A stretch of 64,000 nt of DNA. Source: a virus. The stretch lies in the IMG/VR virus record IMGVR_UViG_3300032229_000533, positions 118,340 to 182,339 of that record; one strand, written 5' to 3'. The notes under the pieces were generated by a model. That model was not told the DNA's origin and searched no databases. It saw only the letters and a program-made list of their open reading frames with translations. Shown in pieces: positions 20,015 to 33,610 of the stretch; within the stretch, counting starts at the first letter, position 1; every line of letters starts with the position of its first letter. A program made the translations under genes and the position numbers.

Positions 20015-21280
20015 TTAAATCATCCAAGAACTAACTTCTTCTAATGACTTGTAAGTTAATTCATTAAGAGAATTTAAAATTTCCTCAACGTTATTTGGGT
20101 CTACACCACCAATTGACATTCTAAACCATCCTTTATTTTCTTTTGAACCAAAATATTCAAAAGGTACTAACCCAATACCACATCTATTAATTAAAAATTT
20201 GGTATAACTTTCAATATTTGTAAATGATAAAGACTCACCCAAATAAATTGAAATATAGATTCCACCTTCAGGTCTTTGGTAATCAATACGGAATCCTTTA
20301 TCTTTTAATTCTTGGATTTTATCACATATTTTGTTTGAAATATCTGAATATTGTTTTGTTTTTGACTTAACAAATTCAACCATATCCTCATAATCATTTA
20401 GATATTTTGCAACAGCGTTTTGTTCTGGTTTAGGTGCCCAAGCTCCAATGTGCGAGAAAACTTCTGTCATCTTACCTATGATGTCCTGTGGACCAAACAT
20501 CCAACCAACTCTAATACCTGTTGCACATAATGATTTAGAAATACCATCCACACAAATCAAATAGTCACGGACTTCAGGACATAATGTTAATGGGTGAACA
20601 AATGAACCCTCAACAGTTAAGTCAGAGTATATTTGGTCAAAGAACAAATACAACGGTCTTGAACCTACCTGTGATTCTCTAATCTTATTCTCGTTTACTA
20701 CCAATTCACAGATACTCTTTAATACCTCAGGATTGATTACACGACCTGTTGGGTTTTGAGGAGAACAAATACAAATTAAAGATGTTTTGTCATTAATTGC
20801 CGTGTCAATATCTGACGCTGTTGGAAAAAACGAGTTCTCAGGTTTACATTCAATTTCTTGTTTAACCGCCCCATGTAAAAAACTATAGTGGTTGTTGTTC
20901 CAAGATGGAACAGGATAGATAACTCCATCACCGTCATTAACCAACGCTTTATAAACCGTATAGATTAACGGACGAACTCCACCACCAACTAATATCTCAT
21001 TTTCGGTATAATCAATACCTTGTCTTTTCTTTAGGTATTCACTAACCGATTGTCGTAAATTTAATTGACCTGCAGACAATGGATAATTGGTTAGGTTTTC
21101 ATTATAAGAATCAACAATGTAATTTTTTAGTTTTTCTGGGATTGGATTTATACTTGAATCAAAATCACCAATTGTTAAATTTTGGACTTTTTTTGTTTTT
21201 GAAATCTCTTTGATTTGTTGAGAGATTTTGATGATTTCAGAACCTACAATGTTGTTTCCTACGTGCGATAATTTTTTCAT
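20015..21280 (-). CDS. PLP-dependent aminotransferase class I/II
   Basis: CSPQNPTG, FDQIY, DGISKSLCATGIRVG (PLP lysine), FRMS. Confidence 0.9.
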   Translation of the reverse strand: MKKLSHVGNNIVGSEIIKISQQIKEISKTKKVQNLTIGDFDSSINPIPEKLKNYIVDSYNENLTNYPLSAGQLNLRQSVSEYLKKRQGIDYTENEILVGGGVRPLIYTVYKALVNDGDGVIYPVPSWNNNHYSFLHGAVKQEIECKPENSFFPTASDIDTAINDKTSLICICSPQNPTGRVINPEVLKSICELVVNENKIRESQVGSRPLYLFFDQIYSDLTVEGSFVHPLTLCPEVRDYLICVDGISKSLCATGIRVGWMFGPQDIIGKMTEVFSHIGAWAPKPEQNAVAKYLNDYEDMVEFVKSKTKQYSDISNKICDKIQELKDKGFRIDYQRPEGGIYISIYLGESLSFTNIESYTKFLINRCGIGLVPFEYFGSKENKGWFRMSIGGVDPNNVEEILNSLNELTYKSLEEVSSWMI

Positions 21281-21319
21281 GTTGCAAATGTAATACTTTA
21301 TTTTTGTTTTTCAAAATTT

Positions 21320-21408
21320 TGGCGGAAGGTGAGGGGCTCGAACCCTCGCGACTTTTACATCCTATCAGTTTAGCAAACTGACCCCTTCACCAACTTGGGT
21401 AACCTTCC
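21320..21408 (-). tRNA. tRNA-Ser(GCT), CCA encoded
   Basis: tcagt-ttGCTaa-actga anticodon arm, long variable arm, canonical T-loop. Confidence 0.95.
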
Positions 21409-21409
21409 A

Positions 21410-21730
21410 TTATTTTATTAACTCCAATAGAACATAAGTTAATTTATATCCTGTAAATGCCCCAAGAGCAGATGGGATTGGAAACACAATCATCTTACCT
21501 AAATCGGTAACATACTTTGGTCTGTTAACAATCTTACCCATAAAAAAATAATAGGTGATATATCCTAACAATACCGCCAAATCTGTCTTGGTTGCAATGA
21601 ATACAACTAATGTTGCACCTATAAATCCAAAGACAAAATTATCTCTAACTCCTTCCCATATTTCGTATGGGGTGGCATCTTTATACTCTTTAACAATTTT
21701 TTGAAATGATTTTCTATTTCTCTTAAACAT
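21410..21730 (-). CDS. Small membrane protein
   Basis: 106 aa with three hydrophobic stretches. Confidence 0.65.
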   Translation of the reverse strand: MFKRNRKSFQKIVKEYKDATPYEIWEGVRDNFVFGFIGATLVVFIATKTDLAVLLGYITYYFFMGKIVNRPKYVTDLGKMIVFPIPSALGAFTGYKLTYVLLELIK

Positions 21731-21745
21731 ACTCTAATTTTTTTG

Positions 21746-21819
21746 TCGGAATGGGTGGAATTGAACCACCGACCATTTGCGTATAAGGCAACCGCTTCTC
21801 ACCACTGAGCTACATTCCG
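21746..21819 (-). tRNA. tRNA-Ile(TAT)
   Basis: CGGAATG/CATTCCG acceptor; ttgc-ctTATac-gcaa anticodon arm; ggtgg-ttcaatt-ccacc T-arm. Confidence 0.88.
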
Positions 21820-21840
21820 TATCATACAAATATAAAAAAA

Positions 21841-21869
21841 ATCCCTCTGAATTTCAAACTCAGAGGGAT
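21841..21869 (-). terminator. Intrinsic terminator
   Basis: atccctctga/tcagagggat 10-bp stem followed by a T run on the minus strand. Confidence 0.8.
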
Positions 21870-21894
21870 AAATTATTTTTAATAAAAAATTATT

Positions 21895-22365
21895 TTATTT
21901 TAAGAATCTCAATTTATAAATAGTACTGTAAATTAATTCTTGAACAGTATCAATTTGATTTTGAATAAAAGACTCTTTAACTGACTTTCTATTTTTTTCA
22001 ATATTTTCATCTAACCCTTTAAAGTAAGTTATTAGTTGCTCTGTTGATTTATAATCAACCATTTTAATTGTTTTATATCCTGTTAACAAATCGTTTTTAC
22101 CTTGGTAGCTCTCAACAATTCCGTCAATTAGTTCAACAATCCCATCGTAATACGTACCTAATGCAGTATGTTCAGCAAATGATGATTGTGATTTTGTTTG
22201 CCAATGAAATACATGTGCCTGACTTCTTGAATGAAGTAATGTTGAAATCATATCAACAATATCCCCATCCTCAGCAATATCATCAGCAGTTTCTTTTTTT
22301 TCGGCTTCACTCAACTGTATTACTTTATACAATTGTTCTTTTGTCAATGTTACTCTTTTTTCCAT
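21895..22365 (-). CDS. Ferritin/Dps-like four-helix protein (DUF5856-like)
   Basis: Start moved to MEKRV at 22365 because the track start lies inside a tRNA. Motifs AHVFHWQT...HTALGTYYDG...ELIDGIVESYQG. Confidence 0.7.
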   Translation of the reverse strand: MEKRVTLTKEQLYKVIQLSEAEKKETADDIAEDGDIVDMISTLLHSRSQAHVFHWQTKSQSSFAEHTALGTYYDGIVELIDGIVESYQGKNDLLTGYKTIKMVDYKSTEQLITYFKGLDENIEKNRKSVKESFIQNQIDTVQELIYSTIYKLRFLK

Positions 22366-22403
22366 ACATATAAATACCTTGCCATTTGGAAAAAAATTAT
22401 TTG

Positions 22404-22475
22404 TACCGATGGGAAGAATTGAACTTCCGACAACTTGGATATGAATCAAGTGCTCTACCACTGAACTACATCGGC
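22404..22475 (-). tRNA. tRNA with CAT anticodon, probably elongator Met
   Basis: GCCGATG/CATCGGT acceptor; cttga-ttCATat-ccaag. Lacks the initiator GGG/CCC stem and the C4/C5 Ile2 pattern. Confidence 0.8.
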
Positions 22476-22480
22476 ATTAG

Positions 22481-22555
22481 TGGTTTCATAGGGACTCGAA
22501 CCCCAACGTCTTTTCGTCCGTAGCGAAATGTTTTATCCAATTAAACTATAAAACC
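22481..22555 (-). tRNA. tRNA-Arg(ACG)
   Basis: tttcg-ctACGga-cgaaa; its 5' 15 nt overlap the HNH ORF end. Confidence 0.88.
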
Positions 22556-23218
22556 ATTGTTGTATTTTTGATAATATTTAACCCATTTTCTAATTGCATT
22601 ATCACTAACATTATATTTTTTACCTGTCCCAACGTAACCAAACTTTTCAATCTCATCTATCAAATTGTTGTAGTCAGGTCTTTCTGTTTTTCGTCTATCT
22701 TTATAATATTCTTCTTTCTCCTTAGTAAAAATTTTTCTCATATCTTCTTTATATGTTTTACTTTTTGTGTTTTTACCACAGTGAGTTGGTAGAGTTGCAT
22801 TACAGTTTGGACAAACTATTCTTAAATTCTCAATCCTATTATCATTCCAAACCCCATTGATATGGTCAATAATTAACGACATCTTTTTTCCCATCCATTC
22901 CTCACCTTGACCACATAATTCGCAATTTCTTTTTTTGATACCTGTTTCATATAACCTTTCCTTCAATCGGCTCCTATTATATGAGGACCCTTCAGTTAGA
23001 ATATCATCTAATTGAATGGTTTTTTCTTTGGTTGATTGATTTAATTTTTCAATTCTAACTTCGTCAGGATTAAAGTGGTCTACATTTATATTATATTTTT
23101 TCAAATATTTTTTTAAGGTATTAAAATTACCTCCTGCAGCTCTTAACCCAAGTTTATGTAAACACTCTGTTTGTGTTTTAGAATTTTTAACAATTTCATC
23201 TAATTTAATTTTATCCAT
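22541..23218 (-). CDS. HNH homing-type endonuclease with flanking HTH-like segments
   Basis: CELCG...LIIDHING...DNRIENLRIVCPNCNA; C-terminal GKKYNVSDNAIRKW. Confidence 0.88.
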   Translation of the reverse strand: MDKIKLDEIVKNSKTQTECLHKLGLRAAGGNFNTLKKYLKKYNINVDHFNPDEVRIEKLNQSTKEKTIQLDDILTEGSSYNRSRLKERLYETGIKKRNCELCGQGEEWMGKKMSLIIDHINGVWNDNRIENLRIVCPNCNATLPTHCGKNTKSKTYKEDMRKIFTKEKEEYYKDRRKTERPDYNNLIDEIEKFGYVGTGKKYNVSDNAIRKWVKYYQKYNNGFIV

Positions 23219-23282
23219 AATTCGAACCTTTAATTATAAATATGTCGAACCATGTAAAAATTTATAGTAGAAATAAAAAAAG

Positions 23283-23353
23283 TTGTCCCTGGAGGATTCG
23301 AACCTCCACAATTTCCGTCAAAGGGAAATGTCCTGCCATTAGACGAAAGGACA
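23283..23353 (-). tRNA. tRNA-Gln(TTG)
   Basis: tttcc-ctTTGac-ggaaa; U1-A72. Confidence 0.93.
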
Positions 23354-23360
23354 ATTTGTG

Positions 23361-23442
23361 TGGGAGTAGTAGGACTCGAACCTACGAACTCAAAAGAGGT
23401 TTGATTTACAGTCAAATGCAGTTGCCGCTGTGCCATACTCCC
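23361..23442 (-). tRNA. tRNA-Tyr(GTA)
   Basis: tttga-ctGTAaa-tcaaa; long variable arm. Confidence 0.93.
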
Positions 23443-23447
23443 ATTAG

Positions 23448-23519
23448 CACGGATGGAGAATTACGATATCCCGACACCTAGTTTTGGAGACTAGTGCTCT
23501 GCCCCTGAGCTACATCCGT
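23448..23519 (-). tRNA. tRNA-Trp(CCA) with non-canonical T-loop
   Basis: ctagt-ctCCAaa-actag; perfect ACGGATG/CATCCGT acceptor; T-loop reads ATCGTAA. Confidence 0.8.
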
Positions 23520-23531
23520 ATTTTTTTTTTG

Positions 23532-23602
23532 AGGTCGGTATAGGATTTGAACCTATGTAAGCGGTTTTGCAGACCGACGCCTAACCACTCGGCCAACCGA
23601 CC
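23532..23602 (-). tRNA. tRNA-Cys(GCA)
   Basis: cggt-ctGCAaa-accg; discriminator U. Confidence 0.93.
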
Positions 23603-23608
23603 TTTTAG

Positions 23609-23683
23609 TGTCCCCGATGGGACTCGAACCCATGACTCCTTCATTAAAAGTGAAGTGCTCTAAACCAACTGAGCTACGAAGAC
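23609..23683 (-). tRNA. tRNA-Lys(TTT)
   Basis: cttca-ctTTTaa-tgaag. Confidence 0.93.
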
Positions 23684-23689
23684 ATTAAG

Positions 23690-23761
23690 TTGTCACGATA
23701 GGATTTGAACCTATGACCGCTTCCGTATCAGAGAAGAACTCTACCACTGAGTTACGTGACA
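23690..23761 (-). tRNA. tRNA-Ile(GAT)
   Basis: cttct-ctGATac-ggaag. Confidence 0.92.
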
Positions 23762-23768
23762 ATAAAAT

Positions 23769-24101
23769 TTATTGTGGTAAAAAAAACATGTTAACAATTA
23801 CATCCCAAAACCAATTTCTTGGAATTTCTTCACATTCAATTCTACCATTTTGAAAATACGTTGTTTTATAATACATTGTCGGTGACTTTTGAATTAAAAC
23901 CCTGTGTTTTGGAGTAAACAACATTGTTTCGGTTAATGATTCATATTCTTTGTCCCATTTTGCAAACACCTCATGCTCCGAACCTTCAATTATTATTTTT
24001 CCTATCTTACCTGTCTTCCATTCAACAATTTCAGTTTTTAATTCAAATCTCTGTGAATGTGATAATATTGGTAATAAAAGGAACAGAACAATTATTTTCA
24101 T
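23769..24101 (-). CDS. Small secreted protein
   Basis: 110 aa; N-terminal signal-peptide-like MKIIVLFLLLPILSHS. Confidence 0.65.
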   Translation of the reverse strand: MKIIVLFLLLPILSHSQRFELKTEIVEWKTGKIGKIIIEGSEHEVFAKWDKEYESLTETMLFTPKHRVLIQKSPTMYYKTTYFQNGRIECEEIPRNWFWDVIVNMFFLPQ

Positions 24102-24131
24102 TTTTTTATTTTTTTAATTTAAATAATATTG

Positions 24132-24214
24132 CGGAGGATGAGGGAATCGAACCCCCAAGGCTTTTACACCCAGCTGATTTCAAGTCAGTGTCCTCGTCCA
24201 TTCGGGCACCCTCC
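24132..24214 (-). tRNA. tRNA-Ser(TGA)
   Basis: ctga-ctTGAaa-tcag; long variable arm; discriminator G. Confidence 0.93.
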
Positions 24215-24247
24215 GTATAACCGACCTAGCTCGGTAAACACATCGGA

Positions 24248-24326
24248 TGGGGTGACTAACGGGAGTCGAACCCGCGACCTCTTGAACCACAATCAAGCGC
24301 TCTAAACCAACTGAGCTATAGCCAAC
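24248..24326 (-). tRNA. tRNA-His(GTG), G-1 and CCA encoded
   Basis: cttga-ttGTGgt-tcaag; G-1 opposite C73. Confidence 0.92.
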
Positions 24327-24330
24327 ATGT

Positions 24331-24470
24331 AAAAGGTAGGGTTGACTTTATCAGGAATCCAGTCTCACGACTTCACACACCATTAGAGAGTTGGGTATTA
24401 CTACCTATCCTTAGTGTGTACCCTTGCGTCACGTCTCTCCACGATTATCAACCTACGCATTTTACTACCA
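24331..24470 (-). ncRNA. Candidate structured ncRNA in tRNA array
   Basis: Two GNRA-capped hairpins (ggta-GTAA-tacc and agtc-GTGA-gact), acacac/gtgtgt stem, long-range gtaggttga/tcaaccctac pairing. Confidence 0.5.
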
Positions 24471-24474
24471 TTTG

Positions 24475-24574
24475 TAGTCAGGACAGGATTCGAACCTGTA
24501 ATGGTATTATACATTCCCATTTCCCCTATGATTGGGAGTGCCAATGGTTTATAAGCCAATTCCACCACCTGACT
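24475..24574 (-). ncRNA. tRNA-like element (100 nt) with non-canonical centre
   Basis: AGTCAGG/CCTGACT-A acceptor, Leu-like D-arm start, acagg-ttcgaat-cctgt T-arm; no canonical anticodon loop. Confidence 0.65.
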
Positions 24575-24965
24575 ATTTTATTAACCCCCACACCTCTTTA
24601 CAATACTTCTCATTCTCAACCGCCTCAATCTCCATCGGGTGATTCTCATACCCATACTTTTTCAACATCTTATAGTACTTGCTCGCCACAGGTTGTAATG
24701 TGTGAGTGTATTCGTGTAATGTTGTTGTAATCAAATCACTAACATTTTTACAATTATTTTTAAACACTATAATTGTATGAGTGTCGGGACGATATTCACC
24801 ATACTTCAAAAAGTCATCGTTTTTACTCTGAGATTTCACAATCGCTTTACAAAAACCTTTTCTTTTATTCACCCCAAACATAACCTCACAAATACCAATT
24901 GTTTTATCAACAATTTGTCTAATCTCTTTGTGTGTTAAAGTCTTCAAATTAGTGTTTATTCTCAT
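24573..24965 (-). CDS. HExxH zincin-like protein
   Basis: Start moved to MRINTN, after a TATCTTTG box; LHEYTH...HPMEIEA. Confidence 0.7.
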   Translation of the reverse strand: MRINTNLKTLTHKEIRQIVDKTIGICEVMFGVNKRKGFCKAIVKSQSKNDDFLKYGEYRPDTHTIIVFKNNCKNVSDLITTTLHEYTHTLQPVASKYYKMLKKYGYENHPMEIEAVENEKYCKEVWGLIK

Positions 24966-25029
24966 ATTATATCCCCGTTTTGTTACACAAAGATACGGAA
25001 TATTCCCCAAATCACCAAAAAAAGTTTTG

Positions 25030-25162
25030 TAGTCAAGGTCGGACTCGAACCGAATACCGTTCTTGACGGATTAGACAACCTTATAACGTCTCGCGTCCAA
25101 ATGGTTATGGACCGTGGTGTTTTTCGGACTTGGGTACCTTCCCGCATTACGCCCACTTGACT
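25030..25162 (-). ncRNA. tRNA-like element (133 nt) with expanded centre
   Basis: AGTCAAG/CTTGACT-A acceptor and tcgg-ttcgagt-ccga T-arm enclosing three small hairpins (gtcca/tggac, agac/gtct, ccgt/acgg). Confidence 0.6.
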
Positions 25163-25164
25163 AA

Positions 25165-25366
25165 CCCCAGTTGTTCGTTCATCTCGGAGATGGGTGCTCC
25201 TGCACGTGTTTCCACCCACGGGATGGTAGCTTTTCTCCTCGGTATTGTAGGACCGAGTGCCTGTTGAGCAACCATTGGCTACTAATGGTTTTGTTTACCC
25301 CCTTCACCAGCTTAATGGACTGGCTGCCATATCGGAAGTGGGGGTTTCCTGTTATTTCAGGACTTC
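25165..25366 (-). ncRNA. Candidate multi-hairpin ncRNA
   Basis: GC-rich against background; stems gaagt/acttc, tcctg/cagga, ccagt/gctgg, aaccatt/aatggtt, ctcggt/accgag and gggtg/caccc. Confidence 0.5.
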
Positions 25367-25367
25367 G

Positions 25368-25440
25368 TGGTAAGGGTTGGAATCGAACCAACGGCACAGG
25401 GATTTTCAGTCCCTTGCTCTACCTACTGAGCTACCATACC
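25368..25440 (-). tRNA. tRNA-Phe(GAA)
   Basis: aggga-ctGAAaa-tccct. Confidence 0.93.
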
Positions 25441-25446
25441 AAATTT

Positions 25447-25698
25447 GAGGTTGAGACCCTCTGTGTTGTAGTGTACGATTATGTTTTCCATAATTCAAGT
25501 AATGTCACTCATCTTTATATCTCCTTTCTCAAGGGAACAACACAATATTGTTGATAATGATGGAGTACCCGTCTCGCTCCAATCTTAAGTGCTTCTTCAG
25601 TTTTACGAGGTCCTCGGCACTGTCCTTTTCAGGGGGTGATGAATTCCAATTCCATTCTGAAGAGTCGACCTTCGTTGAATGGGGAAAACCATTATCAA
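25447..25698 (-). ncRNA. Candidate two-domain structured ncRNA
   Basis: Domain 1: 9-bp ttgataatg/cattatcaa stem (25551-9/25690-8), tcttcag/ctgaaga, ggag/ctcc. Domain 2: tgtgttgt/acaacaca stem with complementary ttgaga and tctcaa loop segments. Confidence 0.6.
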
Positions 25699-25758
25699 TT
25701 CCTTTCGTCGGGGGAGTAGGTCACCAACTTCTTTAACCCCTACTCCCCCACATTATTG

Positions 25759-25830
25759 TAGTCGGTACGGGAATCGAACCCGTCTTTTATCCGTGAAAGG
25801 GATATGTCCTAACCGATAGACTAACCGACC
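25759..25830 (-). tRNA. tRNA-Glu(TTC)
   Basis: tatcc-ctTTCac-ggata. Confidence 0.93.
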
Positions 25831-25837
25831 AATTGTG

Positions 25838-25910
25838 TAGTCCCTGTAGGACTCGAACCTACGACTGCTTGCATGTAAGGCAAGAGCTCTACCAACTGAG
25901 CTAAAGGACT
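25838..25910 (-). tRNA. tRNA-Val(TAC)
   Basis: cttgc-ctTACat-gcaag. Confidence 0.93.
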
Positions 25911-25920
25911 ATTTTTTTCC

Positions 25921-25935
25921 AACATGTCAAAGACC
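25921..25935 (-). promoter_or_regulatory. boxA-like antitermination site
   Basis: GGTCTTTGACATGTT, 10 nt upstream of tRNA-Val; near-identical copy at 29269-29282. Confidence 0.6.
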
Positions 25936-25990
25936 TATTTTGTTTTTCAACGATACAAAGGTAATACATTTTTTTTAAAGTTTTGGACTA

Positions 25991-26032
25991 AAAACAAAAA
26001 ACCCCAAACTTTTTTTCAAAGTTCGGGGTTTT
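25991..26032 (-). terminator. Attenuator terminator 1
   Basis: aaaaccccgaacttt-gaaaa-aaagtttggggtttt followed by tgttttt. Confidence 0.85.
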
Positions 26033-26083
26033 AATATCTTGTTATTTCTAACTTGTTATTAACGTACTACCTTATATCCGAAC

Positions 26084-26167
26084 TCAATTTTGCATATGAC
26101 GATACCAGCTACAGAATACCTCTTGTTGCTTAATAACCGACGACATATGTTTAATTGATGTTCTCAT
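26084..26167 (-). CDS. Leader peptide 1 (27 aa) of tRNA array 1
   Basis: Hand translation MRTSIKHMSSVIKQQEVFCSWYRHMQN*. Upstream TTTG-N19-TATTATTG promoter. Stop codon overlaps gagttcgg, which is complementary to the terminator 5' arm. Confidence 0.75.
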   Translation of the reverse strand: MRTSIKHMSSVIKQQEVFCSWYRHMQN

Positions 26168-26230
26168 TGTTTTATAATTATTACAATAATACGAAAAGTT
26201 TCGTATTTGTCAAATATTTTTTTGTTTTAG

Positions 26231-26303
26231 TACCCCAAGAGGGATTCGAACCCTCAAAAACTTGTTCCTAAGACAAGCGTGTATACCGTTCCACCATCGG
26301 GGT
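26231..26303 (-). tRNA. tRNA-Leu(TAG) without long variable arm
   Basis: cttgt-ctTAGga-acaag; only 5 nt (ttttt) between anticodon and T arms. Confidence 0.88.
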
Positions 26304-26304
26304 G

Positions 26305-26400
26305 TTCATCACATCGTACAGGCATTCTACTCCCAGCTCCGAGGAATTGTATCTAACTTAGCCCTTCTCCACCGCTGTATGGGTACCTGAGGATATGATT
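26305..26400 (-). ncRNA. Candidate small structured RNA between tRNAs
   Basis: GC-rich 95-nt spacer with tacag/ctgta closing stem; the fold is not resolved. Confidence 0.35.
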
Positions 26401-26403
26401 TTG

Positions 26404-26477
26404 TATCCCCGATTGGATTCGAACCAATGACCCACAGCTTAGAAGGCTGTTGCTCTATCCAACTGAGCTACGGAGAC
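26404..26477 (-). tRNA. tRNA-Arg(TCT)
   Basis: acagc-ctTCTaa-gctgt. Confidence 0.93.
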
Positions 26478-26486
26478 ATATTTTTG

Positions 26487-26574
26487 TGGTACCGAGAGCG
26501 GGACTCGAACCCGCACGAACATTACTGTCCAAGGGATTTTAAGTCCCTCGTGTCTACCTTTTCACCACCTCGGC
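26487..26574 (-). tRNA. tRNA-Leu(TAA), CCA encoded
   Basis: aggga-ctTAAaa-tccct; long variable arm. Confidence 0.95.
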
Positions 26575-26622
26575 GTCTTGTTTTGTTGTACAAATATAGG
26601 AAATAAAATTGGATACTACAAC

Positions 26623-27357
26623 TTATAGAGAAAAATTTTCTTCAAATAATGTATTTGAATCATTTTCTTCTGTGTTGTAAGTGTGTTCTAATTCAACGGT
26701 TGAATTGTTGAAATTAAAGATGAATCGTCCGTCAGAACCTTCGTTGATTTCCCAACCACCGAAATGACTTTCAAGTTGACTATAACACCAATCTTCAATT
26801 GAGGCAGGAACTGCATCACTTGTTTCATCAAATGAACTTTCAATATAACCAGAATCTCCACCACCATTGTAACTTAGAGTTAGGATACCATCACTTGGAA
26901 CTTCAACATCTTGCATGTCTTCTTCCATCCACTTATCAAATCTTGATTTATCCTCGTCAGAATCATACTCAACTGTATTACCATCACCTCTATCGTAATA
27001 TGAATAATTGTGAGTTACGGTAAGTTCTTTTCTCTTACAATCAATTTCAATATCAATGTTTTGATAACTCATTGTATCCATATCAGGAGATTCATATGCA
27101 CCCTCAGAAATAACATGATTCATTACTTTTTTAAGAATTGGTGTCAATCCGTCAGGTAACTCTGCTCTATAGTTATTTTCAAAATGTTGTATACGTCTCC
27201 AATCAATGTCATCATGTGACAAGTCATATTGGTCTGAATCCAATTCAATACTAATTACTCCTTCTGTCATACCCAATGACGCAAGATAGTTACAAGTTCT
27301 GTTTAAGTATTTTTTTTCGTCTGGGGTTAAAATTTCTGCCATATTAATAAATATCAA
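26623..27357 (-). CDS. Hypothetical protein (DUF6878-like C-terminal domain)
   Basis: SYNGGGDSGYIE...GGWEINEGSDG motif, recalled from that family. Confidence 0.6.
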   Translation of the reverse strand: MIFINMAEILTPDEKKYLNRTCNYLASLGMTEGVISIELDSDQYDLSHDDIDWRRIQHFENNYRAELPDGLTPILKKVMNHVISEGAYESPDMDTMSYQNIDIEIDCKRKELTVTHNYSYYDRGDGNTVEYDSDEDKSRFDKWMEEDMQDVEVPSDGILTLSYNGGGDSGYIESSFDETSDAVPASIEDWCYSQLESHFGGWEINEGSDGRFIFNFNNSTVELEHTYNTEENDSNTLFEENFSL

Positions 27358-27701
27358 TCTTCTATTTTAAGTGTCCTCAACATCCATTGAGGTCGTTTAT
27401 TTTCTAAAATATTGTTCATCCATTCTTTTGCTGATGGTAAATAATTGTTACAATCTTCTTTTACGTGTTGTTCTCCAACATAACGAGTGTAAACTATTTT
27501 TCCATCACTATTAATGAATTCTGGTCCAAACCTTTTTTCCATTTCAAAAATCCCTTCGCTATGATGTCTGAACATTCTATGTAAAGAATCTCCCATCCAA
27601 CCTTTGGTTTCATCTAACCATTCGTGTAAATGAATATAATCTTCAGGTTTACCACCAAACTTTTTTGCGGAACTTTTTGCATGTATATTAGGATGTGCCA
27701 T
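27354..27701 (-). CDS. His-rich hypothetical protein (DUF6915-like)
   Basis: HPNIHAKSSAKKFGG...HEWLDETK...HRMFRHHSEGIF. Confidence 0.65.
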   Translation of the reverse strand: MAHPNIHAKSSAKKFGGKPEDYIHLHEWLDETKGWMGDSLHRMFRHHSEGIFEMEKRFGPEFINSDGKIVYTRYVGEQHVKEDCNNYLPSAKEWMNNILENKRPQWMLRTLKIED

Positions 27702-27719
27702 ATTTTATTTATTTATTTG

Positions 27720-27793
27720 TGGAGAAGGAGGGACTCGAACCCGCGACTTCTTGAATGCAAATCAAGCGCTCTAGCCAACTGAGCTACATCCCC
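27720..27793 (-). tRNA. tRNA-Ala(TGC)
   Basis: cttga-ttTGCat-tcaag; G3-U70. Confidence 0.93.
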
Positions 27794-27801
27794 AAACACT
27801 T

Positions 27802-27918
27802 TTAGTATAAACCATCTGTAATTGATTTATAGATAAGTACAACCATTCCGATTGCCCACGCACTTACCGCTAATATAATTACGGTGTCTTTCAGTGTAAT
27901 TTTCTTTAACAACTTCAT
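27802..27918 (-). CDS. 38-aa membrane peptide
   Basis: Hand translation MKLLKKITLKDTVIILAVSAWAIGMVVLIYKSITDGLY; TATCTTTG box upstream. Confidence 0.55.
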   Translation of the reverse strand: MKLLKKITLKDTVIILAVSAWAIGMVVLIYKSITDGLY

Positions 27919-27991
27919 AATGTTTTTTTAATGGTTTTCAAAATAGGTTACAAAGATAAATAAAAAGGTTTAATTACCAAAAATATTTTTG

Positions 27992-28065
27992 AGCCTCCTG
28001 TCGGATTCGAACCAACGACATTCGCATTACAAGTGCGACGCTCTGGCCAACTGAGCTAAGGAGGC
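27992..28065 (-). tRNA. tRNA-Thr(TGT)
   Basis: tcgca-ctTGTaa-tgcga. Confidence 0.93.
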
Positions 28066-28157
28066 GTTTTCGGTAAAGAATAGTCACGACCACCTCTGTT
28101 TCTCTTTACCTGTTATTCAATCGTGGCACAATGTGGTACGACCCTAACTGAATCTTG

Positions 28158-28231
28158 CGGTTCGGACGGGACTCGAACCCGCGACCTCCTGCGTGACAGG
28201 CAGGCATTCTAACCAGCTGAACTACCGAACC
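28158..28231 (-). tRNA. tRNA-Asp(GTC)
   Basis: cctgc-ctGTCac-gcagg. Confidence 0.95.
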
Positions 28232-28235
28232 AAAA

Positions 28236-28442
28236 TTCCCCACCTGAGATTCCAGTGAGTGGATTTTTCTTCTGTTTTCCTATTGAAAACACGAGACGGT
28301 CTTACCCGCACATAAACGTCAAACATACTCGGTGGGTTTGTTACGCCCAGGCTCCGACGAACCCCCTCTCTAAAGTCGTGGAAGGCTACAACTATACCAT
28401 TATTAAGAAACGGTACCAAATCTATTGGGTATCTCTTACCCC
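28236..28442 (-). ncRNA. Candidate ncRNA (about 205 nt) between tRNA-Gly and tRNA-Asp
   Basis: GC-rich spacer with no credible ORF; several short stems (tacc/ggta, ttttc/ggaaa, ccac/gtgg). Confidence 0.35.
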
Positions 28443-28445
28443 TTG

Positions 28446-28518
28446 AGCGGTAGACAGGTCTCGAACCTGCGACTTCGTACTTGGAAGGAACGCGCTCTAC
28501 CAACTGAGCTACTACCGC
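28446..28518 (-). tRNA. tRNA-Gly(TCC)
   Basis: cgttc-ctTCCaa-gtacg; its 5' 7 nt overlap the HNH ORF end. Confidence 0.9.
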
Positions 28519-29048
28519 ATTATTAAATTGTCATGTATTTCAAAATGACAATTTGAACAAACTAACATACACTTATCAACTTCATTTTTTAAGTTTTCAA
28601 AACTAAGACTTTTTCCTGATATCTGAAAATCTTTTTCTTTTGGGGTTTTATGATGAAATTGTAATGCTCTATCACATTTATTATACCCACATATTTCACA
28701 TTTTCCACCCTTATATTCTATCAATTCACGTTTTTTTCTTTTTCTCCACGATATTACATTTTCTGAATTTGTTTTAGGAATTTTATCTCTTGTAATAACG
28801 TATTTTTTAACTGTTTCAAATGCATGTCCCTTAAGTTTTGCAACTTTTTTCAAAGAACCAATTTCATCATACAAAACTTGTAACTCTTTCTTTTCCTCGT
28901 CACTCAAAGACACATCCTCACCTCCAAGTTTATGTAAGTTACAATGATAAGATACAGTTGACATAGCACAATTCAATTCGTTACAAATTTCTTTATACGT
29001 TTTACCTGATTTTCTTAATTCTATAATTTTTTCGGAGTATCTACCCAT
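28512..29048 (-). CDS. HTH plus HNH homing-type endonuclease
   Basis: N-terminal HTH (GKTYKEICNELNCAMSTVSYH); GGKCEICGY...LQFHH...KCMLVCSNCHFEIH. Confidence 0.85.
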   Translation of the reverse strand: MGRYSEKIIELRKSGKTYKEICNELNCAMSTVSYHCNLHKLGGEDVSLSDEEKKELQVLYDEIGSLKKVAKLKGHAFETVKKYVITRDKIPKTNSENVISWRKRKKRELIEYKGGKCEICGYNKCDRALQFHHKTPKEKDFQISGKSLSFENLKNEVDKCMLVCSNCHFEIHDNLIMR

Positions 29049-29093
29049 AATTAATATTTTAATTAATAAATATTAGACACTTCGTAAAAAATG

Positions 29094-29177
29094 CTGGTAC
29101 GGTAGGATTCGAACCTACGATGTGGTCACCCAGTCAGGTTAACAGCCTGATGCTCTCGGCCTCTAAGCGACGTACCA
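29094..29177 (-). tRNA. tRNA-Asn(GTT) with long variable arm
   Basis: tcagg-ctGTTaa-cctga; U1-A72, G73; 15-nt variable region with a tgg-GTGA-cca hairpin. Confidence 0.88.
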
Positions 29178-29183
29178 ATTATG

Positions 29184-29256
29184 TAGAGTAGACAGGGGTC
29201 GAACCTGCACGCACTTGCTCCCAAAGCAAGGGACCTACCAATTGGTCAACTACTCT
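29184..29256 (-). tRNA. tRNA-Pro(TGG)
   Basis: cttgc-ttTGGga-gcaag. Confidence 0.9.
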
Positions 29257-29268
29257 ATTTTATTTCCC

Positions 29269-29282
29269 ACATGTCAAAGAAC
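29269..29282 (-). promoter_or_regulatory. boxA-like antitermination site
   Basis: GTTCTTTGACATGT, 12 nt upstream of tRNA-Pro and just after a TTTG-N20-TATATTTG promoter. Confidence 0.65.
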
Positions 29283-29310
29283 ACTACAAATATACAAAAG
29301 AAAACCTTTA

Positions 29311-29349
29311 AAAACAAAAAACCCCGAACTTTTTATGTTCAGGGTTTTT
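29311..29349 (-). terminator. Attenuator terminator 2
   Basis: aaaaaccctgaac-ataaaaa-gttcggggttttt followed by tgtttt; similar in sequence to terminator 1. Confidence 0.85.
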
Positions 29350-29373
29350 AAATTTTGGCTTCTTAGTATTCCA

Positions 29374-29463
29374 TTATTTAAAGTCTGAACATGAGCATAG
29401 AGTGCCTAACCCGTCATTTGTCGGTGTTAAATTCGCTCTATCAAGTGTGTTCAAATTTTTCAT
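29374..29463 (-). CDS. Leader peptide 2 (29 aa) of tRNA array 2
   Basis: Hand translation MKNLNTLDRANLTPTNDGLGTLCSCSDFK*. TATTTATA upstream. Internal atgttcag (29385-92) is complementary to the terminator 5' arm. Confidence 0.78.
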   Translation of the reverse strand: MKNLNTLDRANLTPTNDGLGTLCSCSDFK

Positions 29464-29505
29464 AATGTTTCTATAAATATAGTCAAAAATTTAAAAAATC
29501 AACCC

Positions 29506-29766
29506 CTACAGGTATTTTTTGAATAAATCTTCCAAAGTTTTTTCATCTTCTTGTGAAAGACGGTAATATTTTTCTTTCAATAGGTCCATTTTCTCAATGA
29601 AAACTCCCTCTAAAACTCCAATGTTTTTTTCAGTATCTTCTACTGCGGATGGACTAATATGTCCTCCCTCAATTAGAGCTTCAATAAGTTCTTTAATGTC
29701 TCGTTTGTTACATGCTGATACAAACTCATCGGCATCAACGTCTACGTATGTGTCAAATTCTGGCAT
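29506..29766 (-). CDS. Hypothetical protein
   Basis: Start moved to MPEFDT, downstream of a TATATTTG box. Confidence 0.65.
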   Translation of the reverse strand: MPEFDTYVDVDADEFVSACNKRDIKELIEALIEGGHISPSAVEDTEKNIGVLEGVFIEKMDLLKEKYYRLSQEDEKTLEDLFKKYL

Positions 29767-29851
29767 GATATGTTTTTTTTTTAAATTGTACAATGCAAAT
29801 ATAAGGACTATTTTGGAACATTCCAACTATTTATTAAGATAAATTATTGAA

Positions 29852-31018
29852 ATGAAGTTAAACAGAAAAAACATATTAAAAGAGGGTTTATTTACAAATT
29901 TACTTAAAACTTCAGTTAAAACATTACCATCAACTTTCAAATATCTTGATGATATTACAAGATTAATGACCCCTGAAGTCAAAGCAATCGCCAACACAAC
30001 TACACCAGCAATTCTGAATGTAAGTGAAGGAACTGCAAAAAGATTTTATAAAGATTTTTTTCTATCAACAAACCAATTGTCAAGAAATGCTACTAAAGTT
30101 TCAATGGAAGGGTTAACTCAAAAAGGTATTCAAAATTTAATAGGATTGAAAAAAAATATATCTGACTTATTAAACTTGACTAATGTGTCTCCTGGTGCAA
30201 AAATAGATGCAAAAAACCTAATAAATGTTGTACATAGTACAAAGAATGGGGTTGATAATTTAGTTAATGAGTTGAAATTAGTTAAACCAAATAGTGCGGA
30301 TTTAACAGTTGCAAAAGAAATGCAGACACAAATTGATGATGTTATTTCTAAAAATAATACAATTTTTAAAAATGCGACCATGGGGACATCTACATCAACT
30401 AACCCAAAACCAGTTGTTAAACCAAAAGTCGAGCCAAAATCACTAACTAAACCAAAAGTTGAACCTAAACCAATAGTTAAACCAAAAGTTGAGCCAAAAC
30501 CAACGGTTAAAACAAAAGTTGAACCAAAAGTTAAATCATCATCGCCTAAAGTTAAAATACCTGTGGGAAACTTCAACGAAGTCCAAATTATAAGAGGTTC
30601 GTATAACCTTCCAACACAAAAATCTGCACGTTTTGTTGACCAACTGCTTGAAAAATCTTTCTATGAGGGGTTTGGAAAACGTCACGATATGTGGTCAGAT
30701 GAAATTATAAATCAATTAACCCCTGAAACAAAAAGTTATTTGTTACAATTGAAAAAAAATCTTGAAAAAGAAGGTTTGTTGTATACAAATGGATTTACAC
30801 AAGAATTTAAAAGGTTACCAAAAACGGCAGATGAAGAAATAAAATTACTTTCTGGAAATCATTGGGGTGGACTTGGAAGAAGAATGGGTGCACAAAATTC
30901 AATCAAATCTTTACCTATCCCAAGCAATAGTGTAATTCAAAATTTATTAGACAAGACAATGCAATCATCCAAGAAAGAAGAGATTTTGCAACTTTATAAA
31001 ACTTTGTTTAATAAGTAA
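29852..31018 (+). CDS. Basic hypothetical protein with PKVEPK repeats
   Basis: 388 aa; TATTTATT upstream. Confidence 0.7.
   Translation: MKLNRKNILKEGLFTNLLKTSVKTLPSTFKYLDDITRLMTPEVKAIANTTTPAILNVSEGTAKRFYKDFFLSTNQLSRNATKVSMEGLTQKGIQNLIGLKKNISDLLNLTNVSPGAKIDAKNLINVVHSTKNGVDNLVNELKLVKPNSADLTVAKEMQTQIDDVISKNNTIFKNATMGTSTSTNPKPVVKPKVEPKSLTKPKVEPKPIVKPKVEPKPTVKTKVEPKVKSSSPKVKIPVGNFNEVQIIRGSYNLPTQKSARFVDQLLEKSFYEGFGKRHDMWSDEIINQLTPETKSYLLQLKKNLEKEGLLYTNGFTQEFKRLPKTADEEIKLLSGNHWGGLGRRMGAQNSIKSLPIPSNSVIQNLLDKTMQSSKKEEILQLYKTLFNK
30401..30530 (+). repeat. Degenerate 30-bp coding tandem repeat (about 4 copies)
   Basis: aaaccaaaagt(c/t)ga(g/a)cc(a/t)aaa at 30-nt periodicity, encoding KPKVEPKxxV. Confidence 0.8.
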
Positions 31019-31175
31019 ATTTAATTGTATCCCCTTCTGAATAACGAATACCTGAGAAAATAACACCTGTTTGTGTTGTGTCACCCAAAGACTTAACTTC
31101 GTACTTGTATTGTCCGTTGTCTACTGTTTGACAACACAATACCAAAAATAGTTTAATTCCAATTATTGTTTTCAT
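31008..31175 (-). CDS. Small secreted or lipo-peptide (55 aa)
   Basis: Hand translation MKTIIGIKLFLVLCCQTVDNG...; ATGA overlap with the upstream ORF. Confidence 0.5.
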   Translation of the reverse strand: MKTIIGIKLFLVLCCQTVDNGQYKYEVKSLGDTTQTGVIFSGIRYSEGDTIKFTY

Positions 31176-31462
31176 TTTGTCAATAACATTAAAATTTTCT
31201 CTTTTGCTTCTTCAGTTGTGGAGTTATTTCGTCCACCAATATTCCACTCAATTTCTTCATCCATCCCAATTACTCGGCGATATTTCCAATCATAAACGGT
31301 AATGACTTCAGCGTTATCCAATTCTCTAATCCATTCCATTGTAACTTTTCCGTCACTACTTCTACCATTGGTCATTTCACCCAATGATTTGATTAATTGA
31401 TTTGGTGTCGCTTTAAATGTGCTTCCGTGAAAACTCGTTCCGTTTGCGCTTGCTGTTGGCAT
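31172..31462 (-). CDS. Hypothetical phage protein
   Basis: MPTASANGTSFHG...SDGKVTMEW...YDWK...EWNIGG. Confidence 0.7.
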   Translation of the reverse strand: MPTASANGTSFHGSTFKATPNQLIKSLGEMTNGRSSDGKVTMEWIRELDNAEVITVYDWKYRRVIGMDEEIEWNIGGRNNSTTEEAKEKILMLLTK

Positions 31463-31510
31463 GTGTAACATAATTTGTTTTTATTAAGGATACAAAGATA
31501 ATATTTTTTT

Positions 31511-31897
31511 CTAACTTGCCAACTCCTGATTTAACTTTTTTTCCAAACCTGAAATAATATATGATGCCGTCATGTAGTTGGTTGCAAGTGGTGTGTTATA
31601 TACATTACAAATCCTTAACAACATATTCACATCAACTTGGTGGGGATGAACCTCCAATGGGTCAATAAAGAACACAACCCCTGAGATTTCACCATCGGCA
31701 ATCATTGATGCAATTTGGGCGTCACCACCAAGTGGTCCTGACTTCATACATTCAACATCCAATCCCGCGTGTTCAATATGTTTTCCTGTGGTACCTGTCG
31801 CAATAACCTCAACCCTTTTGAAAAAATCCAACCTTTTCATAACAAAGGCAACCATGTCAGCCTTCTTTCCATCGTGAGCAATAACAGCAATTTTCAT
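31511..31897 (-). CDS. mgsA: Methylglyoxal synthase
   Basis: IAVIAHDGKK, ATGTTG, SGPLGGDAQI, FFIDPL..HPHQVDV..LLRIC. Confidence 0.95.
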   Translation of the reverse strand: MKIAVIAHDGKKADMVAFVMKRLDFFKRVEVIATGTTGKHIEHAGLDVECMKSGPLGGDAQIASMIADGEISGVVFFIDPLEVHPHQVDVNMLLRICNVYNTPLATNYMTASYIISGLEKKLNQELAS

Positions 31898-31899
31898 AA

Positions 31900-32205
31900 T
31901 TATTTTTGTTTTTCGTGAATTGAATTCTTACAATTTCCTTTGTGAGTCCCCCAAGTAAAATGACTATTTCCTGGTGAAACTACAATATATTCACATCCTT
32001 CTAAAGTGTAAATTTGGTAATATCTATCGTATGGTTCTGTAGAGGTACCAAGTTGTTTAATTTCAACAGGTTGTGATACCGTGTTTGGTTCAGGTTCCTT
32101 TTTAATATTAAAGTTACAACCTGATAATACTGTCATTAAAATCATTGATAGGATGATTATCAATATTCCTGCGGACAATCGTTTCATTACTTTTTCGTTA
32201 TACAT
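31900..32205 (-). CDS. Small lipoprotein
   Basis: Hydrophobic signal peptide ending in LSG-C. Confidence 0.7.
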   Translation of the reverse strand: MYNEKVMKRLSAGILIIILSMILMTVLSGCNFNIKKEPEPNTVSQPVEIKQLGTSTEPYDRYYQIYTLEGCEYIVVSPGNSHFTWGTHKGNCKNSIHEKQK

Positions 32206-32220
32206 ATTTTAAAATTTTTG

Positions 32221-32294
32221 TGGACCCTGCAGGATTTGAACCTGCGACCATCACATTATGAGTGTGCCGCTCTGACCGTCTGAGCTAAGGGTCC
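32221..32294 (-). tRNA. tRNA-Ile2(CAT), lysidine type
   Basis: caca-ctCATaa-tgtg; acceptor GGACCCT with C4-G69/C5-G68, the TilS determinants; closely resembles bacterial ileX. Confidence 0.8.
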
Positions 32295-32458
32295 ATTGGA
32301 ATGTTTAGAATAACACCAAATCTCCGTTGATGTTATCCCAATCATCTGAAACTGGTGACATTACAACAATGGTTGTATCTTCAGTTTCTTCTTGGGTTTT
32401 GATTGTTGGTTCGTTTTTCATGTTGCAAATATATAACATTTAAATATATCACACAAAT

Positions 32459-32872
32459 TTATTCTACGGTGTGTTCCCATTGAACTCTAACACAATTTTG
32501 AGGTAACCTATGAATGTGTCTGTAATTGTTAATATACCCCATCATATTAGCACTTCCAATTGCATTTGCTGAGTGTACAACAACATCAACAACAGGACTT
32601 CCATCCATCCATTTTTCAACCAACCATTTGGTACAATCCATACCAGTTTTTTCGGTGATGTTGTCGTAGTTCAATTCGTAATTGTGGTAAACATTCTTAT
32701 GCCATTCAACCATTGCACTATGACCCAAGTCATGGTCCAAAGAAATTAATTCAATATTTTCCAAACCAATTTCATTAATTTTATCTACGAATTGCTCGTA
32801 GTCTCTAACAACAACCCAATTCTCCACATCAACTGGAGTTCTTACGTCATCTAAGTAAATTCTTTTTTTCAT
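32459..32872 (-). CDS. Cyclic-phosphate-processing receiver-domain protein
   Basis: Start moved to MKKRIYLDD; LDDVR, ISLDHDLG, TGMDC, VHSAN motifs. Confidence 0.8.
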   Translation of the reverse strand: MKKRIYLDDVRTPVDVENWVVVRDYEQFVDKINEIGLENIELISLDHDLGHSAMVEWHKNVYHNYELNYDNITEKTGMDCTKWLVEKWMDGSPVVDVVVHSANAIGSANMMGYINNYRHIHRLPQNCVRVQWEHTVE

Positions 32873-33046
32873 AACACAAATATAAAATAAAATTTGGAGT
32901 TTCAAAACTCTTTTAAGATATTTATAGTTATGATGACAAACAAAACCTCAGTGGTCTTTTGGAATTGAAGTCATATAATGAGAACTTAGGTGTAAAGAGG
33001 ATTGGAAATCTCTAACCATAAACAATCTAAATCAATACAATATTCA

Positions 33047-33077
33047 AAAGGGGTGAAAAATTTTTCATCCCTTTTTT
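33047..33077 (+). terminator. Intrinsic terminator upstream of HNH gene
   Basis: aaaaggggtgaaa..tttcatccctttttt. Confidence 0.75.
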
Positions 33078-33121
33078 GTTTTTTGTATGAAAATAACTTA
33101 TTCTTTTAAAAAACTATAAAA

Positions 33122-33610
33122 ATGAGCGGAGTATTAGTGCTGAATTATGATTATACCCCATTGAATATAACTTCAACAAGGAGGGGGTTTGTACTTGTAG
33201 ATAAAGGTAAAGCGGAGATTGTAAAATCTGACGAGAACCCTATTATTGCAGGTTTTAACACCTATGTTAGACCTTTAATTATTAGACTATTAAGTTATAT
33301 TAAACATAATACAAGGAATATTAGGGTTAACAGAACAAGGATTTATAAAAGGGACAATCATGAATGTGTTTATTGCGGGTCAAAAAAACAATTAACTTTA
33401 GACCACGTAATACCTAAATCAAGAGGAGGACGTAATGAATGGACTAATTTGGTGACATGTTGTTTTAAATGTAACCTTAGAAAAGGAAACAAGACTCCTG
33501 AAGAAGCAAAAATGACAATGAACGTAAAACCATATGTTCCGTCATTGTTAAATGAAAATGGATTATTAAATAAAGTGTGGAATGATTATCAACAATCCTT
33601 TGTTTATTAG
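33122..33610 (+). CDS. HNH endonuclease (McrA-like)
   Basis: CVYCG...LTLDHVIPKSRGG...WTNLVTCCFKCNLRKG. Confidence 0.9.
   Translation: MSGVLVLNYDYTPLNITSTRRGFVLVDKGKAEIVKSDENPIIAGFNTYVRPLIIRLLSYIKHNTRNIRVNRTRIYKRDNHECVYCGSKKQLTLDHVIPKSRGGRNEWTNLVTCCFKCNLRKGNKTPEEAKMTMNVKPYVPSLLNENGLLNKVWNDYQQSFVY

Follow-up and report, generated by a model that had tools for sequence, protein, structure and literature searches.

What does a short open reading frame (ORF) followed by a strong intrinsic terminator do in front of a run of phage tRNA genes? The question is raised by the final 64 kb of a 182-kb IMG/VR virus record (completeness estimate of the record, 61%); this whole stretch of DNA is what was analysed here and is referred to below as the window. 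ARAGORN finds 24 tRNA genes in it, all on the minus strand, between 21320 and 32294. Within this tRNA region there are two strong intrinsic terminators of near-identical sequence (29349-29317 and 26032-25998), each with a short ORF before it and a run of tRNA genes after it. We propose that the unit around the first of them is very probably a trp/his-type leader-peptide (ribosome-mediated) transcription attenuator placed before a phage tRNA array, a reading for which all of the evidence is comparative or computational. The features of the window on which the argument rests at the outset are as follows.

29374-29463, minus strand: leader ORF of 29 codons plus stop with an ATG start, read from the sequence and conserved in eight distinct relatives
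29398-29457, minus strand: regulatory block, codons 3-22 of the leader, holding only codons for Asn, Leu, Thr, Asp, Arg (AGA), Ala, Pro and Gly
26230-29256, minus strand: regulated array, with tRNA-Pro, Asn, Gly, Asp, Thr, Ala, Leu(taa), Arg(tct) and Leu(tag) and three interspersed protein ORFs
25998-26167, minus strand: sister unit bounding the array, with a 27-codon leader (26167-26084) and a terminator (26032-25998), heading the array that runs from Val to Ser

A third candidate in the window, before tRNA-Ile(tat), was rejected, as its ORF (21933-22010) lies inside a 188-aa ORF (21895-22461) and its terminator is the end of that gene.

With the DNA, a neighbouring protein and a type II unit as queries, no close relative was found among the deposited phage genomes of INPHARED. 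The sole match was to tRNA-Asp, and no laboratory system was thus found for the lineage. One marine metatranscriptome contains approximately 5% of the words, with contigs of roughly 90%-identical relatives that cover 25991-26181 (the sister leader and its terminator) and 29247-29530 (the leader, its terminator, the box described below and the start of tRNA-Pro). It should be mentioned that these are contigs only, without strand, starts or ends, and that carry-over of DNA is possible.

Leader ORF and the tRNAs of its array

The original prediction placed an ORF at 29463-29374 and gave its translation, and both stand. PHROGs holds no family for either leader, nor for the 86-aa protein encoded upstream. 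All nine tRNAs of the array are sampled by at least one strictly cognate codon within the block of codons 3-22. Six-frame translation of the 182-kb genome yields 855 ATG-started ORFs of 20-60 aa, and among these the run of 20 array residues in this leader is the longest, the next best being 11. The composition rule of the leader is thus extreme rather than weak evidence. The Leu codons had been listed as TTG, CTT, TTA, TTA and CTA, which the sequence confirms, and the array carries both Leu(taa) and Leu(tag). The match extends to Arg isoacceptors: the Arg codon of the leader is AGA, corresponding to tRNA-Arg(tct) of its own array, and in the matched block of the sister leader Arg is CGT, corresponding to tRNA-Arg(acg) of the sister array.

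The sister unit served as a within-phage control for the match between leader and array. Of the 28 codons of leader 2, as we call the leader of the first unit, its own array can read 21, and the array of the sister unit, which comes next, can read 7; in the sister leader, 22 codons are readable by its own array and 3 by the leader-2 array (Fisher p = 5e-6). The overall codon usage of the phage was considered as a cause of the match and rejected. The two leaders come from one phage and have complementary compositions, each fitting its own array, so overall codon usage cannot account for the match.

The sister array has some irregularities of its own. A tRNA-Trp (CCA) at 23448-23519 (minus strand) is missed by ARAGORN and found by Rfam at 47.2 bits; its T-arm looks atypical. 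There is one TGG codon in the sister leader, as expected if this tRNA is part of the sister array. Two gaps free of tRNA genes, 24326-25366 and 25441-25757, contain a convincing ORF only at 24573-25010, and Rfam reports a weak tRNA match of 100 nt (30.5 bits) at 24475-24574 (minus strand). In the corresponding gap of a relative (L019), ARAGORN reports a tRNA-Pro(cgg) and odd predictions whose anticodons have 2 or 4 nt. The gaps and the weak match may hold unusual or intron-bearing tRNAs, or other structured RNAs. Two protein ORFs, 28512-29048 and 22541-23218 (both minus strand), sit between tRNA genes of the arrays and have Cys/His motifs that, judged by eye, resemble those of HNH-type homing endonucleases; the spacing of the array varies among relatives at these insertions.

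Homologues of the leader-2 unit were collected by a scan with the first 21 nt of the ORF and from loci found via the box, which gave eight distinct relatives. All eight have an ORF of 27-29 codons with identical first seven residues. Beyond residue seven the leaders vary, and we observe that the substitutions remain within the set of eight residues. In two of the loci (L151 and L152) the array starts at tRNA-Asn, without tRNA-Pro, and the leader is without its only Pro codon. The mirror between leader and array is not perfect everywhere. The leaders of L148-L150 retain Thr, Ala and Leu codons and ARAGORN finds no such tRNAs nearby; those of L048 retain Ala codons without a tRNA-Ala.

The same cassette is observed in other phages. 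A simple unit finder, which required a terminator with an ORF ending at most 90 nt upstream of it and a tRNA gene fewer than 260 nt downstream, identified 55 units distributed over 38 IMG/VR loci. These comprise seven leader families with unrelated terminator sequences, in which each leader fits its own array. For arrays of Pro-His-Gln type, QPQPQQHPQ is an example of the leader core; where two Arg tRNAs (tcg, acg) are added, in an Arg-Arg-Pro-His-Gln array, the leader contains two CGT codons; and arrays of Asp-Glu-Val-Leu-Ala-Trp type have leaders rich in just those residues. One array covers 19 amino acids, all except Pro, and its leader of 32 residues contains exactly those 19; only 0.17% of random 31-mers have 19 kinds of residues. 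When the leaders, one representative per family, were permuted over the arrays, the true assignment ranked first, without a tie, among the 5040 permutations, whether scored by summed enrichment or by the number of missing array amino acids.

Most leaders begin with Met-Lys-Asn-Leu or a close variant, whatever the type of array or the sequence of the terminator, which is possibly an A/U-rich initiation context for hosts that do not use Shine-Dalgarno sequences. Some units of the Asp-Glu type (L004, L006 and L052) have a conserved 43-aa ORF between terminator and box, ending 13-14 nt before the box.

Antiterminator, terminator and ribosome position

The leader and the terminator contain three segments with the potential for mutually exclusive pairing.

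29448-29455, minus strand: segment 1 (anti-antiterminator), pairing with 29384-29391 in the untranslated transcript according to minimum-free-energy folds
29385-29392, minus strand: segment 2, the antiterminator strand ATGTTCAG, within codons 24-27 and 9-16 nt before the stop codon
29335-29342, minus strand: segment 3, the antiterminator target CTGAACAT, consisting of the last six nucleotides of the 5' arm of the terminator and two loop nucleotides
29305-29349, minus strand: intrinsic terminator with a 13-bp stem (29349-29317), a 7-nt loop and a T-run, with a near-copy at 26032-25998

A perfect complement of 8 bp had been claimed between ATGTTCAG at 29392-29385 and the 5' arm and loop of the terminator, and it is indeed there, with CTGAACAT at 29342-29335 as the partner. 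Such a complement arises in 1.2% of shuffles of the 3' part of the leader, so that the 8-bp complement alone is mildly unusual and weak evidence. The nucleotides GTTCAG in the C-terminal part of the ORF are conserved in the homologues, but their frame is not: the codons are TGT-TCA-GAC here and GTT-CAG in four relatives. This difference in frame implies that the RNA, not the peptide, is conserved there. In a covariation alignment (A2) anchored on the GTTCAG motif, the seven core pairs of the antiterminator are standard pairs in 100% of the eight distinct sequences. The two outer pairs have changes in both partners, and the loop nucleotides covary with segment 2: read directly, the outer pairs are AT/AT here, GT/AC in four relatives and GAA/TTC in L151/L152. 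One outer pair is lost in L148/L149. It is noted that a loop gap in A2 causes the outer pair of L151/L152 to be scored as unpaired, although the partner pairs one column over. As a control, the partner was slid by one to three columns in A2, upon which pairing fell from 95% to at most 42%. The terminator stem is paired in 94% of the cells across the homologues. A pairing neither conserved nor compensated in homologues would have refuted the original prediction; instead, the core pairs are kept and the outer pairs are compensated.

The arrangement is also observed in families whose sequences are unrelated. Every family has a copy of the 3' arm of the terminator near the stop codon, in a range from 29 nt ahead of it to 8 nt past it, and 27-46 nt upstream of the 5' arm; this copy changes along with the terminator of each family. 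The 3' end of the leader pairs best with its own terminator, compared to the terminators of other families, in 8 of 8 cases.

To model the effect of ribosome position, nascent RNA was folded under two constraints: the 15 nt that directly follow the A-site codon were masked, and the polymerase was set at the end of the terminator loop. As long as the A site is within codons 1-20, the fold of lowest free energy is the antiterminator, consisting of the 8 bp and an inner 7-bp helix, with an energy of approximately -11 to -12 kcal/mol. In these footprint-constrained folds the antiterminator is weaker with the A site at codon 21 and absent from codon 22 through the stop codon. The proposal that a ribosome at the stop codon masks the antiterminator is therefore supported, within the limits of the model, by the ribosome-footprint folds. 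The predicted switch point of the fold at codons 20-22 coincides with the end of the matched block at codon 22, and a switch at the end of the matched block is predicted likewise in units of all seven families. The C-terminal residues that break the composition rule had been said to coincide with or flank the pairing segment; the folds place them past the last stall that could signal. According to the folding model, the last seven residues ignore the rule because a stall there could not signal.

In the untranslated state, the full-length leader folds as a hairpin of segments 1 and 2 (the 1:2 hairpin) plus the terminator (z = -5.6). This 1:2 hairpin is predicted in the minimum-free-energy fold, and its conservation was judged by eye only. 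The finished terminator, at approximately -18 kcal/mol, is more stable than the antiterminator at approximately -12 kcal/mol. Read-through must hence rest on the antiterminator forming first, by kinetic trapping, as in classical attenuators. In the trp attenuator the energies are near -12 kcal/mol for the 2:3 pairing and near -20 kcal/mol for the 3:4 pairing, the same order as in the phage unit.

Promoter motifs and the boxA-like box

Three further elements flank the leader and the terminator.

29472-29486, minus strand: candidate leader promoter, TTGACT (29486-29481) plus TATTTATA (29479-29472), 8 nt before the ATG, with a function inferred from the motif only
29287-29318, minus strand: Bacteroidota-type promoter motif, TTTG (29318-29315), N20 and TATATTTG (29294-29287), overlapping the T-run of the terminator, function inferred
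29263-29282, minus strand: boxA-like box GTTCTTTGACATGTGGGAAA, 7 nt before tRNA-Pro

The phage-type motif TATTTATA that had been reported upstream of the leader is present at 29479-29472. All nine homologues retain it at 7-14 nt upstream of the ATG, and it occurs 22 times in the window, where 10.2 occurrences are expected. The original prediction also raised a complication, namely that a TTTG-N20 promoter motif just after the terminator may cause the attenuator to boost rather than gate expression. The complication is real and the motif is conserved, but only in this phage lineage. TAnnTTTG is found behind the terminator in all nine leader-2 homologues, in most of them with TTTG 19-20 nt before it and within the T-run, and also behind the sister terminator in this lineage. 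It is absent behind the terminators of the other leader families. Instead, a host-type promoter is located upstream of the leader in these families, and the terminator is 8-46 nt from the box or, in the Pro-His-Gln units, 12-24 nt from the first tRNA. In the Pro-His-Gln units this distance leaves no space for a promoter, and transcription must therefore pass through the terminator.

Given the motif behind the terminator, expression of the leader-2 array may be largely independent of the attenuator, and boosting rather than gating is a fair reading for this unit. The attenuator probably adds regulated read-through from the TTGACT/TATTTATA region on top of a basal host-type input, modulating expression rather than gating it. 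In most phages the attenuator is the only gate; the roles assigned to the promoter motifs are inferred throughout. Before leaders of this lineage there are also sigma-70-like sequences, TTGACA-N16/17-TATTAT/TATACT, at 26186-26213 (minus strand) in the window and upstream of the sister leader in L013, L019, L030, L061 and L068. Sigma-70-like sequences before the leaders as against TTTG/TAnnTTTG behind the terminators suggest two classes of promoters, each perhaps active in a different phase of infection.

A total of 70 IMG/VR loci contain the 18-nt core of the box, most of them at approximately 21-30 nt ahead of the first tRNA of an array. When the 18-mer was sought in 185,579 species genomes, the genomes containing it were mostly Bacteroidota. 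In four Bacteroidota genomes (L079, L086, L119 and L124, annotated with Rfam) the box is 30-60 nt upstream of the 23S rRNA gene and after the spacer tRNAs. The spacer boxA of E. coli rrn operons has the same position, and the phage box resembles the E. coli boxA consensus. Since the box is shared with rrn operons of Bacteroidota, the phage box is copied from an rrn signal of its host, most likely a bacterium of this phylum. The element before the 23S rRNA gene is a candidate spacer boxA for the Bacteroidota. The box most likely loads Nus-type antitermination factors, allowing the polymerase to reach the end of the untranslated array; that NusB/NusE bind and that antitermination is processive are inferences from the position of the box and its resemblance to the consensus. 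A location just behind the terminator is appropriate for transcripts that are past the checkpoint and have to cross kilobases of untranslated structured RNA.

Three contigs in MAGs labelled Shapirobacteria, Erysipelotrichaceae and Saprospirales (L084, L087 and L105, respectively) have the box followed by phage-like tRNA arrays, and one of them (L084) has the same Val-Glu start as the sister array in the window. These are probably phage contigs mis-binned into bacterial MAGs.

Proposed mechanism, alternatives and significance

In the mechanism we propose, a transcript starting upstream of the 29-codon ORF would be translated while RNA polymerase heads for the terminator. Translation of the ORF and stalling within it are inferences, and the direction of the response and the signal itself are inferred by analogy with known attenuators. 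A shortage of charged tRNA for Asn, Leu, Thr, Asp, Arg(AGA), Ala, Pro or Gly would slow the ribosome in codons 3-22 and leave ATGTTCAG free. This strand could then pair with CTGAACAT, together with the inner helix, so that the terminator would not form and transcription would read through, via the boxA-like box, into the nine tRNA genes. With fast decoding, a ribosome at codons 22-30 would cover ATGTTCAG, the terminator would form and transcription would stop. Without translation, segment 1 would hold the antiterminator strand, and the terminator would be expected to form as well. The outcome would be negative feedback on the supply of the tRNAs of the array itself.

Other explanations of the same anatomy have to be weighed. 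The switch could report general translational capacity, such as the supply of ribosomes, a global slowdown or the action of antibiotics, or the leader RNA or peptide could act in trans. The folding model leaves room for a general sensor in that any slowdown of elongation in codons 3-20 favors the antiterminator, and two leaders of other loci (L010 and L024) that sample nearly all amino acids would act as general sensors. Such a sensor would, however, need neither an array-specific composition nor two complementary leaders in one phage (Fisher p = 5e-6), and isoacceptor-specific Arg codons would not be required. Action in trans has a precedent, since trans-acting products of an attenuator, rnTrpL and peTrpL, are known (PMC7968998, PMC6614838). 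Yet a peptide with a fixed function is not expected to vary freely in its set of residues or to shift its C-terminal frame. We consider it improbable that either form of this explanation accounts for the unit.

A reversed logic is a second alternative, in which translation of the leader is needed for read-through, for example because it opens the 1:2 hairpin or shields the transcript from Rho, and the array would be produced only if its codons are well decoded. In the predicted fold of the untranslated RNA, segment 1 does sequester the antiterminator strand, so that some movement of ribosomes is needed in any case. However, the stop codon is 24-51 nt before the terminator stem in all units, a distance at which a terminating ribosome cannot directly block the hairpin, and in every family the antiterminator strand is within reach of a ribosome at the stop codon, which fits masking on completion of the peptide. 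The reversed logic would also result in positive feedback on tRNA supply, without an obvious use. Taken together, it is a very unlikely explanation.

Scarcely any credence can be given to an ordinary gene end, in which the terminator closes the upstream operon, the ORF is due to chance or unrelated and the array is driven only by the promoter behind the terminator: in spite of a well-formed, conserved Bacteroidota-type promoter motif between terminator and box, an 8-bp complement that alone is at a chance level of about 1% and the lack of transcript data, it leaves unexplained the composition match and its persistence through substitutions, the joint loss of the Pro codon and tRNA-Pro, the compensated antiterminator pairing, and a cassette in six further families that matches their own arrays, in some without space for a promoter.

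The preferred reading, leader-peptide attenuation of the tRNA array, can be compared to known regulatory systems. The enterobacterial amino-acid attenuators (trpL, hisL, leuL, pheL, thrL and the multivalent leader of ilvGMEDA) and that of pheST, which encodes phenylalanyl-tRNA synthetase, also have a short ORF with regulatory codons, its translation being inferred in the phage unit, and three exclusive pairings (1:2, which in the phage unit is a prediction from folding, 2:3 and 3:4) ending in an intrinsic terminator, and their antiterminator strand is likewise located where a ribosome at the stop codon would cover it. In contrast to these systems, the phage-borne unit precedes genes for tRNAs, not enzymes. 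Its leader is a roster of eight amino acids and nine tRNAs, resolved at the level of isoacceptors, whereas enterobacterial leaders contain a run of one or a few residues. It also differs in the rrn-type box that follows it and, in this lineage, in the internal promoter motif behind the terminator. T-box riboswitches likewise sense a specific tRNA pool through a choice between terminator and antiterminator upstream of translation-related genes. However, T-boxes bind uncharged tRNA directly, through the specifier loop and the T-box sequence, and have no ORF, whereas the phage sensor would be the translated ORF. No Rfam leader, T-box or riboswitch family matches 20500-33500 at E values up to 0.1. 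The phage box of 18-20 nt is the word that precedes the 23S rRNA in rrn operons of Bacteroidota, comparable to rrn boxA, with NusB/NusE and partners, and to the nut sites of phage lambda; unlike these, it is a downstream accessory element and not the sensor, and Nus binding in Bacteroidota is inferred.

The class of mechanism is thus known, and what is new is the tRNA-gene target, the roster-type leader for multiple tRNAs and the phage setting. A full-text literature search, which did not cover most subscription journals, found no description of leader-peptide attenuation of tRNA genes. We think it likely that the tRNA genes of large Bacteroidota phages are divided into blocks with separate feedback: a roster leader would sample all tRNAs of its block, resolved by isoacceptor, and a terminator/antiterminator switch would raise only that block when any of its tRNAs is short. 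This would be a modular, multi-input circuit for tRNA homeostasis and the first case of leader-peptide attenuation of tRNA genes.

To our knowledge, essentially nothing is known of how phage tRNA genes are regulated. Discussion of the role of phage tRNAs is usually confined to codon usage or to the evasion of host defences that target tRNA. A leader that lists tRNAs would show that phages gauge decoding speed codon by codon and adjust the supply of tRNAs block by block. Textbook attenuation would be extended to a new class of targets, and the leaders would provide a read-out of the tRNAs that limit phage translation. The parts of the cassette (sensor ORF, switch and rrn-type box) are compact and modular, and could be reused as tRNA- or codon-specific biosensors. 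For annotation, the leader peptide predicts the tRNAs of one transcription unit, including those that gene finders miss, such as the tRNA-Trp at 23448-23519. If the reading is true, a block-wise circuit of this kind may let phages offset the depletion or cleavage of host tRNAs during infection.
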